The position numbers and the translations under genes were made by a program. From the NCBI GenBank assembly GCA_009602725.1, contig WELB01000017.1, positions 214,184 through 264,436 on the forward strand: a stretch of 50,253 nt of DNA, given 5' to 3'. The notes under the pieces were generated by a model, which saw only the letters and a list, made by a program, of their open reading frames with translations, was not told where the DNA came from and made no database searches. Shown one piece after another: positions 34,625 to 47,168 of this stretch (the stretch's first letter is position 1; each line of letters opens with the position of its first letter). The DNA comes from Spirogloea muscicola (taxonomy: Eukaryota).

Positions 34625-37600
34625 GGCCCGCCAGCGCGTCCTCGGACCCCGGCCTAGCGCCGCCGTCGGCCGCCGGTGGTGGCGGCGGCTCGGATCGCGG
34701 CGGCCGTGCGCTGCAGGAGCTCGATGAGCAGGAGTGCCTGTACATGGACGGCGCCGCCGCAGCCGCCGCCGCGCTGCGCCGCAGCAATGGCAGCGGCGGC
34801 GGCGGCATGTACGTCGTCACCAGCAGCCTGCTCAGCATCCTGAGCTGCGCGGAGCAGCACCGCCACTTCCGCGTGAACCTCGACGCGCAGATGCAGCACG
34901 ACGGCCAGCCGGCGCCGCCGCCGCCGCCGCAGGAGCTGCTGCTGCAGGCGGCCAGCACCTCGCATGGCGGGGCCAGCGACGAGCTCTCGTACCACGACGA
35001 CCAGCTGCACGGCCTCGCCTTGGGCGGCGCTGCCATGGACCCGGACCAGGACGACATGGCGTCCATCCTCGAGGCCTTCTACGTGGCCGACCCCGGCCAG
35101 TCTGAGGGCAACAGCCGCGTCAGCACCACCTCGGCTTCGGCAGCCACAGACCCCGCAGGTCGGCCAGTTGCATGTGGAGAGATAACGGAAGCTGAAGCTG
35201 CCTGAAAATGTCTAGGCCGACAAGCACCATGGCTCCTGCCTGTGTATACACTGATGTACATGTTCATCAGGCTTTCTGACTGGTTTGGATGTCCAGTCTC
35301 CAAGCTGCGTCTGGTCACAATAAGATTGGCATATCTCACACGGAGGTGGTGCCGCAGACTCAGGCCTTGATCGGCCGAGGCTGGCCCGCCGCCGGGTGTC
35401 CGAGAGGAAGCGGCCGGCAAACAGCACGAGCTGCTTCAGGGGCGTCACGCACCACTGCCGCACTGGGAGGTGGGAAAGCCATATCTGGTGAGCTTTTCTG
35501 CCACTCCAAATCTCCTCTTATGCGCACCAGCTGTCTGGCCGGAGTCTGATTGCAAAGTCGTCACAGCCTGTCTCGAGGAACTCGACTAGTTTGTGACGAG
35601 GTCGTTACGGATGCTATAAGGGGCACGCACAGCAATTACAGCGGTCAGCATGCGCTCAATTAGTACCTCCATGTGTAGGGAAAATGGAAGGCAGCTCTAC
35701 CTCGGTGGCTTTGACTCTGGTAAGCTTGAGTGTCAGACCTCTCAGGAGCTACTCTAGACCAGCATGTCCAGCAGCAGCACTTGCTCAATGTCGATGATGA
35801 GAGTGAGCTTAGCAGAGCAGCATCGAGGCCCTATATTTTGGGTTTGACAGTTCGCTATCATATTAAGGGACATGTTGTCGAGGCAAGAGACTGCCAGGTC
35901 GGCAGGTCCTGTCCATCTCTGCTGTGGGGCTCCCTTGTGTTGTCCATGTGCAGAGGAGCAGGCTGCTCTCGCCTATGACATAGCTGCCATCAAGTGCAGG
36001 TAGGCAAGCTGCACATTCTGGAGTCCCCTGGCAGCCTTACATCAGCAAGTTGCTCGTGAATGACACAACTTTGTGCAGTCGAAGCGGTTTATGAGTATTC
36101 AATCATTCAGTGCTGAGACTTGCATCTCGCTAAGGTCAACCTCAGCTTTCTTTACTGTCAATTACATGTTTAAGGACCTGCACAGTCAACAACTAACAAG
36201 GAAGGTATGGCCACCTTGGGGTCATCGACCTACTGTGTGCAGAGGAACTGGTGCTGTCACGAACCTGTCCATTGACAACTACCGCCCCCACTTTGCTGAG
36301 ATCTGTGAGCATCCTGGAGCACCAACATGCAACCTGCTCTAGCCGTGTGAGCTAAGAGCATCAAGCTGTGCGTGCCCCACCGCGGAATCGGATCTCTGGG
36401 GTATCCGTGTCAAGTCCTTCACGCAGAATAGGTGACAGGACAAGCATCAAACCTGTTGGTAGCTGCGGTGTCAAAGGAGGAGCTGGTCATATCCCTTCGC
36501 CGACATAGCAAAGGCTTCTCGCGGGGTTCCTCTCGCTATCGAGGAGTCACACGTCATCAGAAGGTCGATGCAGAGCTTTTGCTAAAATAGTTTTAGTCCT
36601 TGACTTGCCAGCTGCTTCAGCACTAAATCATGCAAGTCCTGCTTGCACGGATTCTGCTCAGTGCAACTGGACAACTGACATATACTTCGACGCAAGCACA
36701 TTACTGTTGCTACTGCATGCCTAGCTGATAAGTGATTGGAGTCATCCTTCGCCTATCAGGCGACAACCAGAGATACCTTCTGATCGCCCACTACCGTCTG
36801 TACAGGGCAAATGGGAGGCAAGGATTGGTCAGCTTCAAGGGAAAAAGTATATGTACTTAGGCCTGCACGACACCGAAGAAGAGGCTGCAGCCGCCTACGA
36901 TTGCGAAGCCATCAGGTATCATCGGCTTGCCAGCGCGGCTGCAGCATGCCTGGCCCGTGCCTGCAGCTCTGATTACCAACAGTACAGTCAGACTCATCCC
37001 AGTGTGACTCACGGATGATGACCACACTGAGCAGGCAGAAAGGGCAACAAGCGGTCACCAATTTCGATATTGCCCTGGTCAGCTGCTGATCTCCAGCTCT
37101 GCGTAGCTTGTGTTGCTTCAAAGGGCTTCTGGCTGCGCAAGCTACTGCTGAGTTCTGCGACAGAAAGAATAATATAGCCACATCGCCCTCATCCAACATT
37201 CTTCTCAATATCGTTGTTGGATCACGATAGTCACCTTTCAATTCCAGATGATTTTGGGGGCAAATCGTTGATGAGAAACACTGGTGTATGCATGGTTGCT
37301 ATGACTGCCGATGGACAGTACTCGGCGGCGCCCAGTAGCCAGCACCAGCGATCCCAGGAGGAGATGGCTCTGCATCATCACCTCCAGCACCAGGAGCTCC
37401 TTGGTGAAGCCCAGGGCGAGATACTGGCAGACCACCCCTCCTTCGGGCAGCCCTCGGACCCGGGGGGCGGGAGGCAAAGTGAGAGCGACAGCCCACCATT
37501 CCTCTCAGCCTGCTTCGAGAGCCGACCCTTGGGCCTGGCAGCCAAGAGGCGGATGCTGAGGAAGCAGAAGCAGCACCTGCGATGGCCATCTGTTGAGCAG

Positions 37601-37642
37601 CGTGCGAGGGCACGGCATGACACCTCCTCTGCTGGCAACTGA
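34625..37642 (+). CDS. AP2-subfamily transcription factor with two AP2 domains; start and last exon uncertain
   Basis: First repeat: [22 protein letters not shown] (~35425-35487) | [13 protein letters not shown] (~35680-35719) | [16 protein letters not shown] | AVTN. Linker: [21 protein letters not shown]. Second repeat: [42 protein letters not shown]..|AVTNFD. Confidence 0.85.
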
Positions 37643-38396
37643 AGAGCGCTGACTCACCCAGCTTAAAGCGGTTTACTCTTCGAGCTAGTTAGCACCTATT
37701 CTGTGCAAGGTCAACCGTAATTACAGAAGAACGCTTGCACTTGCAATCATTTGCACTCTTTGAGCTGATCTCAATAATGCATGCTGCATCAAGCTCAACC
37801 ATGGTCCGTGACTATGGGAGGCTTCCTGCAGCATGTACTCTTCCCTTCTGGAATTTAGTAAATGGAGAGGCTCCAAAGGTTCATCAACACATCACAATAT
37901 AGGAAGATCTGCAATATCCTGCTTCCCTGAAGCCTCCCTGGGGGTCGACTTGAGCTTCTTAGCTGTTGGTGCAGAACGTTGTCTAGTTTTGGCAAGAACT
38001 AAGTAAAGACCTTGTCCTGATGTCGTCAACCACAGAGCAGAAGTCATGGAGGCAATGCGAAGCTTCCTGAAGATATCTCAAGAAAAGTTAAAGACCTCAT
38101 TGGATGCTGAGATGTACACATAAACAAGTACGCCGCAACATGAGAATAATGTCAAATAGTAGGCAATGACTTGTGCCTGTGCTGGTTCATACAGAGAAAT
38201 TGATGAGGCAATTGACTTGTGCAATTCCCAATAGCGGAACTACGAGCAGGCCTCACTCAGTGCACAGTAAACTCCATCAAAGGTTGTGCAAGCTCGTCCA
38301 GATCTCAGGTGCTTTAGGAGCACAGCCAACGATACAACCACAACATTGCCGTCCCATAGGTCCTAGCTGCACCTGCTCACATGCACACAACAACTC

Positions 38397-38483
38397 GGCA
38401 CACTCCCTACGCAGGAATTATCCTGATCAGGTGACAGGGTATAATCTCAGCCCGAGCACTGATGCTCGAGCACCCCTGGTGCC
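38397..38483 (-). promoter_or_regulatory. TPP riboswitch aptamer C (distal) in the THI1 3' region
   Basis: Minus strand: GGCAC CAGGGGTG CTCGAGCA-tcag-TGCTCGGG CTGAGA TTATACCCTGTC ACCTGATCAGGATAATTCCTGCGTAGGGAGT GTGCC. P1-P5, UGAGA and the CUGA..GG.UAAU.CC.GCG.AGGGA core are all present. Confidence 0.95.
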
Positions 38484-38575
38484 AAAAGTGAGTCAGTACA
38501 GGTGTCGTCAAAGACATCAAAGAATGACAGAGGCAGCCTGTTTCCTGGGAACACAAATAAAGAACACAACCCATT

Positions 38576-38665
38576 GGCACACTTCCTTCGCAGGCATTAT
38601 CCTGATCAGGTCTTGGGGTATGATCTCAGCCCAAGCAACAGATCTGCTTGAGCACCCCCGGTGCC
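38576..38665 (-). promoter_or_regulatory. TPP riboswitch aptamer B (middle) in the THI1 3' region
   Basis: Minus strand: GGCAC CGGGGGTG CTCAAGCA-gatctgt-TGCTTGGG CTGAGA TCATACCCCAAG ACCTGATCAGGATAATGCCTGCGAAGGAAGT GTGCC. Confidence 0.95.
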
Positions 38666-38741
38666 AGATGGTCGTACGTCAGTATCAGAACAGACACCAC
38701 AAGCAGCATAGACCACCAGACAATGAGATCAAGACAGACAA

Positions 38742-38849
38742 GGCACTTCCCTCCGCAGGCATTATCCTGATCAGGTTGTAAGGGTATAATCTCAGCCCGC
38801 ATCATGCAAAGGCCAAAAGCCTTGCAGTATGCCGGGCACCCCCAGTGCC
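38742..38849 (-). promoter_or_regulatory. TPP riboswitch aptamer A (proximal) in the THI1 3' region
   Basis: Minus strand: GGCAC TGGGGGTG CCCGGCATACTGCAAGGC-tttt-GGCCTTTGCATGATGCGGG CTGAGA TTATACCCTTACA ACCTGATCAGGATAATGCCTGCGGAGGGAA GTGCC. It begins about 195 nt after the THI1 stop. Confidence 0.95.
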
Positions 38850-39043
38850 AACCAACCAAAGCAAGCACACTGACAACAAAGACAATACTGTCCGCCTGTC
38901 TGTCAGGCTCACGCCTAGCACTCCTCACATCCATCACTGTGCACACTATTGCTCATTGTTTTTACTACTGATGCAAGCAATGCAAATGATCAGTCTGGCA
39001 GGAAATAGTGCAGCACAGGAGGAGGGTAAGGCATAGTTGGCGG

Positions 39044-40713
<1,670 letters not shown>

Positions 40714-41504
40714 AGATGAGTGCAAGCGAGAGGGAGGGCTGAGAGCGGCAGGAGCGGCGGCGGCGGCGGCGGCGGCGGTCGTCGCGGCGGCGGCGGTGTG
40801 GAGCTGAAGGAGAGTAATGGCTAATAGAGGCTTGGCACTGCACCGCAGCCGCAGAATTAAGGGGAAAGCAGGTGCCTGCTGCCGGGGCCCATCGCGGCCC
40901 GTGTCCATCAGCTGCCTGTCACTATCACTGTGCTTTCCCGTGCGTGAAGTGAGCACTTTCAAGTGTGGGCCAAGGGCTGTGAAACGAGAAGGGGCTGTGA
41001 AAGGCAGGCCAGCCCAATAACAAACTTGAATGGCAGTCTCCAGCTAGCGGTGCAGACACGGGACGTCCCTCCAGCAATGCGCGCTTGGCCCCCTTCTGCC
41101 AAGACCGGCCCCGGGTGCATGCGCGACGAGTGACGTGTCGCGGTGATGGCGGATGCCGTCGTCGTCCCGTCGGTCGTCGTCGCGACCGCTCGAGATAGAA
41201 TCCGAGCCCTGGGCTGATCCCTCTCGACGGGGGGCCCTTGGCATCCCGCCGTCGTCGTGGCTAATGCCGCCTCACGCCGTCACTGCTCGGGCTCGTGCTC
41301 GCCGCGGCGATCCCGACCGCCTCGTCTCACTGGTGGGAGCGGGTCTTCTGAGAACAAACGGGCTCCGACGCTAGCTCCCTTCTAATTTAGGGCCTGTTTA
41401 CACTTGTGAGAAAGAGCCCCCCCCCCCTTCCACTAGGGGTCCCGTCTGAGGACGACGAACATCGAGAAAGCATCAGTGTGTCCCCGCCTCCCTCCCTCCG
41501 CGCC

Positions 41505-45492
<3,988 letters not shown>

Positions 45493-45897
45493 TTGGACTA
45501 CTAAATACGTGAGTGGCCTATAACCACCATATACATGAGTGCGTGCAAATCCGGTATGTCTCCTTCTGCATTCCAGATATGTGCAGTGTGCATGCTTCAA
45601 GCATCTGTTGTGCTGTAATCAAGAACTCTGCAACTTGCCATAATCTCCTTCGTCCCCTACGTTCTCAGTCGTCTCTACTATGGGCTTTTGCAGGTACCAG
45701 AGCATCACGCATATGCAGCTCAGGGCTGATTTGAGTTGGATGCTCGTTTTCAGAGGCTGCTGTAGTCTGCATGCTGAGTCGTACTGGTCATAGACTGCTC
45801 TTGGATGCGCCACAGGAGGCTTGTCTGCCCTAGACCTTGGAACAGCAGGTTGCATTGGATTGTTTTCCATTTGAGAAGAGTTGTGGCTAACTATTTC

Positions 45898-46015
45898 GGC
45901 ACCGGGGGTGCTTGCTTGAGGTTCACCATCCCCAATACAGGGGGTGGTGACTGAGAGCAGGCTGAGAGAGTCCCTTACAACCTGACCAGGTTAAGACCTG
46001 CGGAGGGAGTGTGCC
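45898..46015 (+). promoter_or_regulatory. TPP riboswitch aptamer in the THIC 3' UTR, with a long P3
   Basis: GGCAC CGGGGGTG CTTGCT..TCACCATCCCC-aataca-GGGGGTGGTGA..AGCAGG CTGAGA GAGTCCCTTACA ACCTGACCAGGTTAAGACCTGCGGAGGGAGT GTGCC, about 405 nt after the THIC stop. This is the known position in plant THIC genes. Confidence 0.95.
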
Positions 46016-46482
46016 GAATATTCGTTGTGGTTTGTGCTGTGCAGGACTTTGCAGACGTTCATGTGCAGGTCGTAATCAAGTGGAGGACTGCAATTACTGT
46101 TTCACATGTCAGGCATCTTGCATTGATAGCTTGCTATGTTCACTTTCTTTTGTTGCATCGTTACGCTCTTGCATGCAAGAGCGTCCTTGACTAGTAAGGT
46201 GGTTGCATCGTGTTAGATCAAGCATCTGGCCAACTGTAAAGCGTGTGGTCAGTGGGCGTGGTTTTAGTCTAGTAGCAAGGATAGCTGGATGGGCTGACTA
46301 GCACCTCCGTTTTGTCAAGTGGACGGGATGCGACGTCCCTCTTGCTGCTTGTATTGAAAATAAAACGAGACAACCGCTTTGCTATTCTGAGACATAGCTT
46401 GGCATAGGCTGGGTTGTTGTCTGCGCTGCAGCGCAGGAAGTACTTAGCTTCATGTAAGAAGCAGCGTGGTATTTGTCTCCTT

Positions 46483-46616
46483 TACTGCCTCTGTACAAGT
46501 CTCTCCATTGACCAGCCTTTCAAAGAGGAACACGTACTAGTGTTATGATACTACCTCTGTACAAGTCTCTCCACTGACCAGCCTTGCAAAGAGGAACAAT
46601 TACTAGTGTTGTGATA
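46483..46616. repeat. Imperfect tandem duplication, 2 x 66 bp
   Basis: TACT(G/A)CCTCTGTACAAGTCTCTCCA(T/C)TGACCAGCCTT(T/G)CAAAGAGGAACA..TACTAGTGTT(A/G)TGA starts at 46483 and again at 46549. Confidence 0.9.
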
Positions 46617-46795
46617 GGACCGCCGAATCCTTGCACCTGAAGAACAGGCTGTTGTGGCCTTGGTTAGACTGGCCTCTCCCAGCCACCGCTCCTGGAAACG
46701 TCTTCTCCCCCCCCCTTTCACAGCCCCCGTCCCCTTTGGAAGAGCTCAGTTAATCTGATAACCATTTCTCACAGCCGACGCCTGACTGTACAAGA

Positions 46796-46937
46796 AGAAG
46801 CGGCACTCCCAATGGGGGCAAGGGCTGTGAAGAGCCAGCCCGAAAAGAATTGGCAAAGGTTCGAAGGGGCCAAACGACGGAGGGGCCTAAAGCGCTTGGC
46901 AGCTACGAAGGGGCCTGGAGATGCTGTGTCAGAACGG
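46796..46937 (-). mobile_element. 142-bp 5'-truncated copy of the CRE-like element 3' UTR with an 8-bp target-site duplication
   Basis: GTACAAGA occurs at 46788-46795 and 46938-46945. The reverse complement of the insert ends ..CAATTCTTTTCGGGCTGGCTCTTCACAGCCCTTGCCCCCATTGGGAGTGCCGCTTCT, nearly identical to the 32906-32954 insert. Two degenerate plus-strand motif copies lie at ~46660-46750. Confidence 0.8.
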
Positions 46938-47168
46938 GTACAAGAGCTGTTTCTTTGGCGAGGACGACCGCAGTGGAATGGAGTGTGTTATGAGTGATGG
47001 AGGGTCTGGGTGAGGCAAAATCCAGTGGGCTCCAGTGGTGGGAGCCGACCGTGAGGCACTGTCGGGGACGTTGGCGGCCAGGACCCAGTTCCGGAACTGA
47101 GGGCGAGTGCTGTGCCCGCCCGCGCGCCCCGCGCGCCGCGAAGTGCGGCGCGCCGCGCGGCGCGCCCN

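Follow-up and report, generated by a model that had tools for sequence, protein, structure and literature searches.

The THI1-THIC locus

The window, by which we mean the whole stretch of 50,253 nucleotides of Spirogloea muscicola DNA that was analysed (contig WELB01000017.1, positions 214,184 to 264,436), contains two divergently transcribed genes for thiamine biosynthesis, THI1 and THIC. Both are followed by thiamine pyrophosphate (TPP) aptamers, three in the case of THI1 and one in the case of THIC. The genes and the stretch between them are as follows.

39044..40713, minus strand: THI1 (thiamine thiazole synthase, Cys-type), 5 exons, 364 amino acids
40713-40465, 40316-39945, 39776-39681, 39577-39365 and 39208-39044, minus strand: exons of THI1
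40714..41505, no strand assigned: intergenic stretch of 792 nt separating the start codons of the divergent genes THI1 and THIC, a candidate shared promoter
41506..45492, plus strand: THIC (phosphomethylpyrimidine synthase), SM000017S02779, with seven coding introns that are skipped by contigs of the RNA-like sequencing run X5

The THI1 translation is identical to that of Spirogloea muscicola SM000017S02789 and carries the Pfam Thi4 domain (PF01946, E 7e-114 in a profile search). Its Cys230 lies within the motif HHTQSCMDP and aligns to the sulfur-donor cysteine of chain 1rp0_A. Judged by its predicted protein the gene is a THI1/THI4 thiazole synthase gene of the Cys type, as the initial annotation of this DNA had proposed. 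Enzymes of this type are single-turnover (PMC11521341, in part). Two further full-length THI1 copies, on s33 and s285, differ from this one by 2 and 6 residues, and a THI1 fragment is present on s2815. Spirogloea muscicola has presumably undergone a recent genome triplication.

Beyond the 3' end of THI1 the nearest other gene is an AP2-domain-like gene (36725-37800, plus strand), which converges on THI1 and has a Pfam score under the cut-off; X5 cover near this gene stops at about 37806. No AATAAA-type signal occurs in 39043-37900.

Three TPP aptamers downstream of THI1

An Rfam scan of the whole window returned four matches, every one of them to RF00059, for which the gathering cut-off is 54.3 bits. 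Three of these lie on the minus strand behind THI1, at 38853-38731 (72.0 bits), 38669-38565 (63.1 bits) and 38487-38386 (63.8 bits), all above the cut-off and all spanning the full model (1-105), and they are the three minus-strand matches that the initial annotation had expected from such a scan. The fourth match (45894-46026, plus strand, 55.9 bits) lies behind THIC and was absent from that annotation. An E-value scan of 37500-47000 found no additional half-copy of an aptamer. Named A1, A2 and A3 in transcript order, the THI1 aptamers are:

38742..38849, minus strand: TPP aptamer A1, with a long P3 and no AG in P2
38576..38665, minus strand: TPP aptamer A2, in which P2 opens with G-C and not A-U, so that there is no AG in P2
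38397..38483, minus strand: TPP aptamer A3, with a plant-type P2 acceptor, CACCAG/G, at 38476

The array begins 194 nt downstream of the THI1 stop codon, on the same strand, and all three aptamers sit inside 453 nt. The limits first assigned to them by eye (38849-38742, 38665-38576 and 38483-38397) and the spacers of 76 and 92 nt are exact in the sequence, where we could also confirm the elements said to be common to all three copies, namely P1 (GGCAC pairing with GTGCC), CTGAGA and the P4-P5 core. Stems P1 to P5 can pair in each copy, the ligand motifs CUGAGA and GCG are intact, and the positions of CUGAGA, P4-P5 and GCG are retained throughout. Folded in isolation, the copies match the aptamer outline with z-scores of -3.07 (A1), -2.18 (A2) and -3.10 (A3); these folds were equalled by 0, 7 and 1 of 200 shuffles, respectively, and the folds of the two spacers were unremarkable (17/200 and 184/200). 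On this evidence A1, A2 and A3 are TPP riboswitch aptamers, and all three are predicted to bind TPP. A2 also has a CAG in the 5' arm of P3.

The copies vary in the length of J2/4, in P3 and in the base preceding P5', and they could conceivably prefer different ligands (TPP, thiamine, or thiazole and pyrimidine precursors), making the array a multi-input gate for the thiazole branch. Precedents are the Chlamydomonas THIC and THI4 switches, which are reported to answer also to HMP and HET, respectively (PMC12371167), and some RNAs classed as TPP riboswitches that prefer thiamin or TMP (PMC9481103, in part). We consider such a division of ligands decidedly improbable here: A1 to A3 do not differ in CUGAGA, which binds the pyrimidine, or in GCG on the pyrophosphate side, and no specificity-altering position was found among them.

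Transcript cover and assembly of the array

Four sequencing runs were compared over the locus, including a DNA run (X1) and the RNA-like run X5 (one study). X5 is not recorded as RNA and was taken as such because its contigs skip introns, namely three of the four introns of THI1 (the fourth is skipped by run X7 alone) and seven coding introns of THIC. Runs X6 and X7 contribute a small share and derive mostly from other organisms. Contig depth was not read as expression level or copy number.

X5 includes an exact 371-nt contig over 38507-38877, comprising A1, spacer 1 and A2, and X1 includes a DNA contig with the same limits. Both runs cover all bins between 38002 and 39003, the bin of A3 included, with X5 cover reaching to about 38000. 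Judged from the contigs of this spliced RNA-like run, the THI1 aptamers lie in transcribed 3' UTR, and unspliced contigs appear to run through them. Among the 15 of 46 splice joints listed, which come from one RNA-like run with thiamine status not given, none falls inside the array.

No contig among those listed passes from the last exon through all three copies, A3 is in none of the listed pieces, and the DNA run X1 is possibly the source of the assembly itself; the array might accordingly be suspected of being an assembly artefact, or of lying outside the THI1 transcript. Both suspicions seem to us highly improbable. That the copies are non-identical and their spacers unique makes an artefact unlikely, contigs of the DNA run and of the RNA-like run both cross A1, spacer 1 and A2, and the bins from 38002 to 39003 are covered. 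As for a transcript other than that of THI1, the AP2-like neighbour is on the opposite strand.

Age and conservation of the array

Spacers 1 and 2 are mutually unrelated (371 of 500 shuffles align as well), and in 15 comparisons of flanking sequence the single one that stood out, at 17/500 shuffles, was treated as chance. The cores without P3 are 86-87% alike among A1, A2 and A3 and 83-89% alike when compared with the aptamers of Sphagnum-like THI1 genes and of locus L032. A recent tandem duplication was considered and rejected, as the spacers are unrelated and the cores are no nearer to each other than to moss aptamers.

Differences between the stems preserve pairing. The first pair of P2 is A-U in A3, G-C in A2 and G-U in A1, and one pair of P3 is G-C in A1 and A3 and A-U in A2, which bears out the earlier remark that the P3 stems differ yet still pair. 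Over eight aptamers 96.4% of the alignment cells pair, a figure reached by 0/500 shuffles but inflated by related rows, in an alignment where P2 is displaced by one column in some rows. The X1 contig represents a second genomic version of the locus, with 5 of 371 nt differing across A1-A2: two in P3 of A2, one in J2/4 of A1 and two in the spacer. Both changes in P3 of A2 retain pairing, one turning G-U into A-U and the other A-U into G-U. The unrelated spacers, the similar cores and the stem changes that keep their pairs together make the array look old and kept by selection, and on this point the sequence comparisons agree with what the initial annotation had argued.

Through the two P3 changes in A2, at 38644 and 38648, a CAG disappears and a new one arises at a distance of 4 nt, an isolated case that could be due to chance.

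A search with a plant-type aptamer pattern, which would miss aptamers with different starts, matched 6 loci in genome contigs and 32 in metagenome contigs, and had 0 matches in viral contigs. The Rfam scan was confined to the 32 metagenome loci, where it gave one match in 28, none in 4 (under the cut-off) and two in none. In 8 of the 32 a THI1 gene lies upstream, best matching Sphagnum proteins among 12 queries, and each of these eight loci has a single aptamer of the same RF00059 3' UTR kind as that of Spirogloea THI1. The moss state therefore appears to be one aptamer, with the reservation that the eight loci are a few near-identical sequences and that the comparison set is moss-like and holds no zygnematophytes other than Spirogloea. 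Some of the remaining loci (L009, L013, L015, L037 and similar) are GC-rich, with a variant aptamer core and no THI1 or THIC match, and several of these have TGACG or ACG directly before P1.

Candidate splice signals of the aptamers

The following candidate signals lie in the THI1 3' UTR, all on the minus strand and given here in transcript order.

38899..38916, minus strand: element complementary to the P4-P5 arm of A1/A2, covering the donor candidate GTGAG with its GT at 38912
38678..38684, minus strand: branch-point-like TACTGAC, putative branch A 14 nt before A2
38545..38575, minus strand: G/U-rich tract and CAG/G, a putative acceptor 31 nt behind A2
38492..38498, minus strand: branch-point-like TACTGAC, putative branch A 10 nt before A3
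38373..38396, minus strand: G/U-rich tract and CAG/G, a putative acceptor 24 nt behind A3

By these signals A1, A2 and A3 are unequal modules. An AG in P2, which serves as acceptor in plants and green algae (PMC9544697, in part), is found in A3 alone among the four aptamers of the window, being absent from A1, A2 and the THIC aptamer; it is present in 9/9 outside loci checked. A CTRAY motif, its A placed 8-14 nt upstream of P1, precedes A2, A3, the THIC aptamer and all nine outside loci, against a background of 2-6% of positions, and a G/U-rich tract ending in CAG/G lies 19-31 nt downstream of this same set. A2 and A3 are thus both equipped with their own branch-like motif and acceptor candidate. 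A1 has neither: no branch-like motif occurs in the 40 nt upstream of it, and spacer 1, downstream of it, contains no AG anywhere. Another AG stands immediately behind P1 of A3.

In outside loci L007 (2428-2575), L010 (2428-2578) and L032 (2428-2587), all on the minus strand, the P2 AG is accompanied by a second CAG/G 19-22 nt behind P1 and by CTAAT 8 nt before P1, that is, by two competing acceptors with one branch-like motif. A loose end in run X7 has a similar tract behind an aptamer.

With a splice-site matrix built from 14 local introns, the best of the 43 AGs in 39060-38300 were 38545, 38373 and 38476, in that order. Donor candidates upstream of A1 scored weakly, with 2.2 for 38928 and -1.0 for 38912, against a leave-one-out range of 0.5 to 9.3. 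Within the 194 nt upstream, the element at 38916-38899 made the best duplex with the P4-P5 arm of A1 and A2 (-20.8 kcal/mol). This duplex was matched by 9/150 shuffles for A1 and 1/150 for A2 in a test that was selected after inspection of the data. Against shuffles the same test was negative for A3 (29/150) and the THIC aptamer (48/150); among five moss loci it was negative for L007 (136/150) and L008 (123/150) and found a GT-bearing element in L010, L023 and L028 (2, 2 and 1 of 150), these three being near-identical.

In local folds both forms lie above the ensemble, the masked one by 1.2-3.7 kcal/mol and the aptamer one by 0.3-2.5 kcal/mol. In a fold of the whole 714-nt UTR, 38916-38899 forms no pairs with any aptamer (0.0 bp). 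The donor at 38912 stays closed when the aptamers are forced, being unpaired at 0.18 when the UTR folds freely and at 0.10 with all three aptamers folded. When each subset of aptamers was forced in this fold, no donor, branch or acceptor switched except 38476 (0.03 to 0.20). Masking of the 38912 donor by P4-P5 is suggestive only, because the whole-UTR fold does not pair the element with an aptamer and the donor stays closed when the aptamers are forced. Folding within the whole UTR costs about 6 kcal/mol for A1, 0.2 for A2 and 1.7 for A3.

This inequality raises the question of whether A3, with its plant P2 acceptor, controls expression alone, leaving A1 and A2 as redundant back-ups or as leftovers of an old duplication. 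A1 and A2 lack the P2 AG, A1 is further without a branch-like motif or downstream AG and is the costly one to fold, and a single aptamer suffices in the eight Sphagnum-like THI1 loci. We nevertheless find sole control by A3 improbable, since similarity has vanished from the spacers while the cores remain 86-87% alike with their pairing retained, in the second genomic version too, and decay would not leave the binding residues intact. Loss of the P2 AG is no mark of a dead switch, as this AG is missing from the THIC aptamer too.

A model for control of THI1

The reading that we favour, tentatively and at somewhat less than even confidence, is a plant-type 3' UTR splicing OFF switch with multiple aptamers, in which the TPP-bound state permits removal of a UTR intron. 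Its anatomy (the P2 acceptor, the branch-like motifs and the donor candidate complementary to P4-P5) makes control through splicing likely, and at least two of the copies probably have a part in thiamine control, whichever route is used. When TPP is scarce, the P4-P5 arm of A1 or A2 would pair with 38916-38899 and hide the donor at 38912, leaving the UTR unspliced and the message productive. Binding of TPP would close P4-P5 and expose the donor, and A2 and A3 would each supply a branch point and an acceptor (38545 for A2; 38476 or 38373 for A3), giving several routes for removal. The resulting splice junction would lie 131 nt downstream of the stop codon and its product would probably be destabilised, like spliced THIC in land plants; by the usual rule this distance is enough for nonsense-mediated decay.

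The favoured reading is preferred because the complementarity of the A1/A2 arm, together with the retained branch motifs and acceptors, fits the published plant mechanism, in which a 5' splice site is masked by P4-P5 as long as TPP is not bound, and splicing yields a long form of lower stability (PMC3597705 and PMC10226581, each in part). Against it stands the observation that the productive form of Arabidopsis THIC ends before the aptamer, whereas Spirogloea THI1 contigs run unspliced through the array. The predicted 3' UTR TPP aptamers of diatoms, which do not regulate their genes (PMC9544697, in part), are a warning here.

Most or all of the copies may instead sense TPP and lower THI1 output by a route other than the 38912 donor. 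Branch, aptamer and acceptor modules might operate with a donor at 38928 (or at 38716 for A2), or the effect might be on 3' end formation, stability or translation. That none of the 15 listed joints (of 46) falls in the array, that every donor candidate is weak and that the whole-UTR fold fails to favour masking all point in this direction, and there are precedents in the 3' UTR TPP riboswitches of intronless Micromonas genes (PMC4260697, in part) and in the Chlamydomonas mechanism, which works on the 3' splice site via P1 (PMC3597705, in part). We judge this alternative unlikely, given that the complementarity to the GTGAG element and the retention of branch motifs and acceptors match the plant mechanism.

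Under the splicing OFF switch that we favour, three copies would shut off more deeply, and modestly more steeply, an enzyme that each reaction consumes, and would not act as a digital switch. In a model with independent 1:1 sites the effective Hill coefficient is 1.19 for two sites and 1.26 for three, the response range for three sites being 32-fold as against 81-fold. In the model, repression by any one bound copy puts the half-point at 0.26 Kd, and a requirement for all three to be bound puts it at 3.85 Kd. A Hill coefficient of 1.26 implies that the benefit would be one of depth or of a shifted threshold, and the initial suggestion that the switch is possibly ultrasensitive was too strong. 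Nothing suggests true cooperativity among the three aptamers.

Comparison with known TPP riboswitches

To our knowledge, no eukaryotic riboswitches other than TPP aptamers have been validated. On THI1 of non-seed plants, single aptamers in the 3' UTR are known (PMC11521341, in part). The main text of this survey mentions neither Spirogloea, a zygnematophyte alga, nor tandem copies, and its supplement (table S5 on THI-boxes and 17 THI1 homologs; S1-S2 on 10 streptophyte algae) may bear on the novelty of the array. As in the THIC switches of land plants (Wachter 2007 and Bocobza 2007, via PMC10226581, PMC3597705 and PMC9544697, each in part), the RF00059 aptamers at the Spirogloea locus lie in the 3' UTR, A3 has an acceptor AG in P2, and a donor candidate is complementary to P4-P5 (of A1/A2). 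Land-plant THIC and THI1 switches have one aptamer, in contrast to the three here, two of which lack the P2 AG. A single plant copy is reported to reduce RNA by as much as about fivefold (PMC12371167).

Green-algal switches such as those of Chlamydomonas THIC and THI4 (Croft 2007, via PMC3597705 and PMC12371167, each in part) likewise have splice signals within or next to the aptamer. Genes of both branches are switched in Chlamydomonas, just as both THI1 and THIC carry aptamers here, but the Chlamydomonas aptamers are single and lie in a coding intron or the 5' UTR, unlike the three of the THI1 3' UTR.

Serial aptamers of one class on a single mRNA, for which pseudo-cooperativity is expected, also make up the tandem TPP riboswitches of bacteria (Welz and Breaker 2007; PMC9481103, in part). 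The bacterial tandems lie in 5' leaders and have an expression platform for each aptamer, whereas the Spirogloea array lies in the 3' UTR of a nuclear gene and its copies have differing splice signals. The initial annotation held that tandem TPP switches are described mainly in bacteria. A bacterial survey does list 213 tandem TPP representatives, with one triple among them (PMC9481103, in part; eukaryotes are not treated in that part), an older survey puts multi-aptamer TPP UTRs at < 1% (PMC2258182, in part), and the available part of PMC12452182 deals with prokaryotes only. Eukaryotic doubles have already been reported as well. Saprolegnia NMT1 has two highly similar TPP aptamers in 5' UTR introns (PMC5882874, in part), and some genes of Micromonas CCMP1545 have one TPP aptamer in each UTR (PMC4260697, in part). 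These resemble the Spirogloea array in having more than one aptamer on a eukaryotic gene, with two against three here. The Saprolegnia pair is alike and lies in the 5' UTR, whereas the THI1 copies have diverged, adjoin one another and occupy the 3' UTR.

The initial annotation knew of no described eukaryotic triple, and none was found in the literature that we searched, some searches being loose and the literature covering few subscription papers. The aptamers themselves are ordinary, as far as their sequences tell. What we did not find described for a eukaryote is their arrangement, in which all three copies bear signs of selection. Triples are rare even among bacteria, at one in the 213 tandem TPP representatives of PMC9481103 (in part), and a natural triple suggests how a nucleus-encoded gene might multiply its response without a protein factor. 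The host belongs to the algal sister group of land plants, and seed plants subsequently lost the THI1 switch. The locus is also its own experiment, with three aptamers on THI1 and one on THIC, a short shared intergenic region and three homeologous copies. It allows the dependence of the splicing dose-response on aptamer number and splice-signal placement to be tested, which would be useful for synthetic switches in plants and algae.

The THIC aptamer and the gene pair

The fourth aptamer of the window is the following.

45898..46015, plus strand: lone TPP aptamer of the THIC 3' UTR, downstream of a UTR intron (45509-45693) that is spliced out

It has a branch-like CTAAC 8 nt upstream and a CAG/G 29 nt downstream, and an X5 contig passes it unspliced. 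A donor candidate at 45849 accompanies the region 45898-46044 (plus strand). The lack of an AG in P2, the CTAAC in front, the strong CAG/G behind and the donor candidate together suggest an intron that would enclose the entire aptamer. Elsewhere in THIC, the intron at 44361-44568 (plus strand), which is skipped by an X5 contig, has a GC donor.

THI1 and THIC are head to head in all three annotated Spirogloea pairs (s17, s33 and s285), with gaps of about 0.8-1.0 kb. Locus tags also place the two genes together in ferns, an adjacency that rests on the tags and not on orientation: the tags are consecutive in Adiantum capillus-veneris (0000611/0000612), and the pairs are 03G079100/079200 and 30G007800/007700 in Ceratopteris richardii and 036109/036110, 008154/008155, 033138/033136 and 042792/042788 in A. 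nelumboides. Among the copies listed for Selaginella, Riccia and Calypogeia the two genes are not neighbours. THI1 and THIC are possibly an ancient thiamine gene pair, of which we found no description in the literature searched (a loose search) or in the main text of PMC11521341.

A more far-reaching proposal, which we regard as somewhat unlikely, is that the array is the first eukaryotic triple riboswitch with divided labour and that aptamer number sets the ratio of THI1 to THIC enzyme. If so, A1 and A2 would mask the donor while A2 and A3 provide branch point and acceptor, forming a multi-input splicing gate in a 3' UTR, and three aptamers on THI1 against one on THIC, behind a short shared promoter, would balance the single-turnover thiazole enzyme against the pyrimidine enzyme.

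A very high-copy repeat lies behind THIC at about 46690-46940, where X1 depth is thousands-fold over that of the flanks and many loose ends occur, and a similar repeat piece is present at about 40960-41010, between THI1 and THIC.
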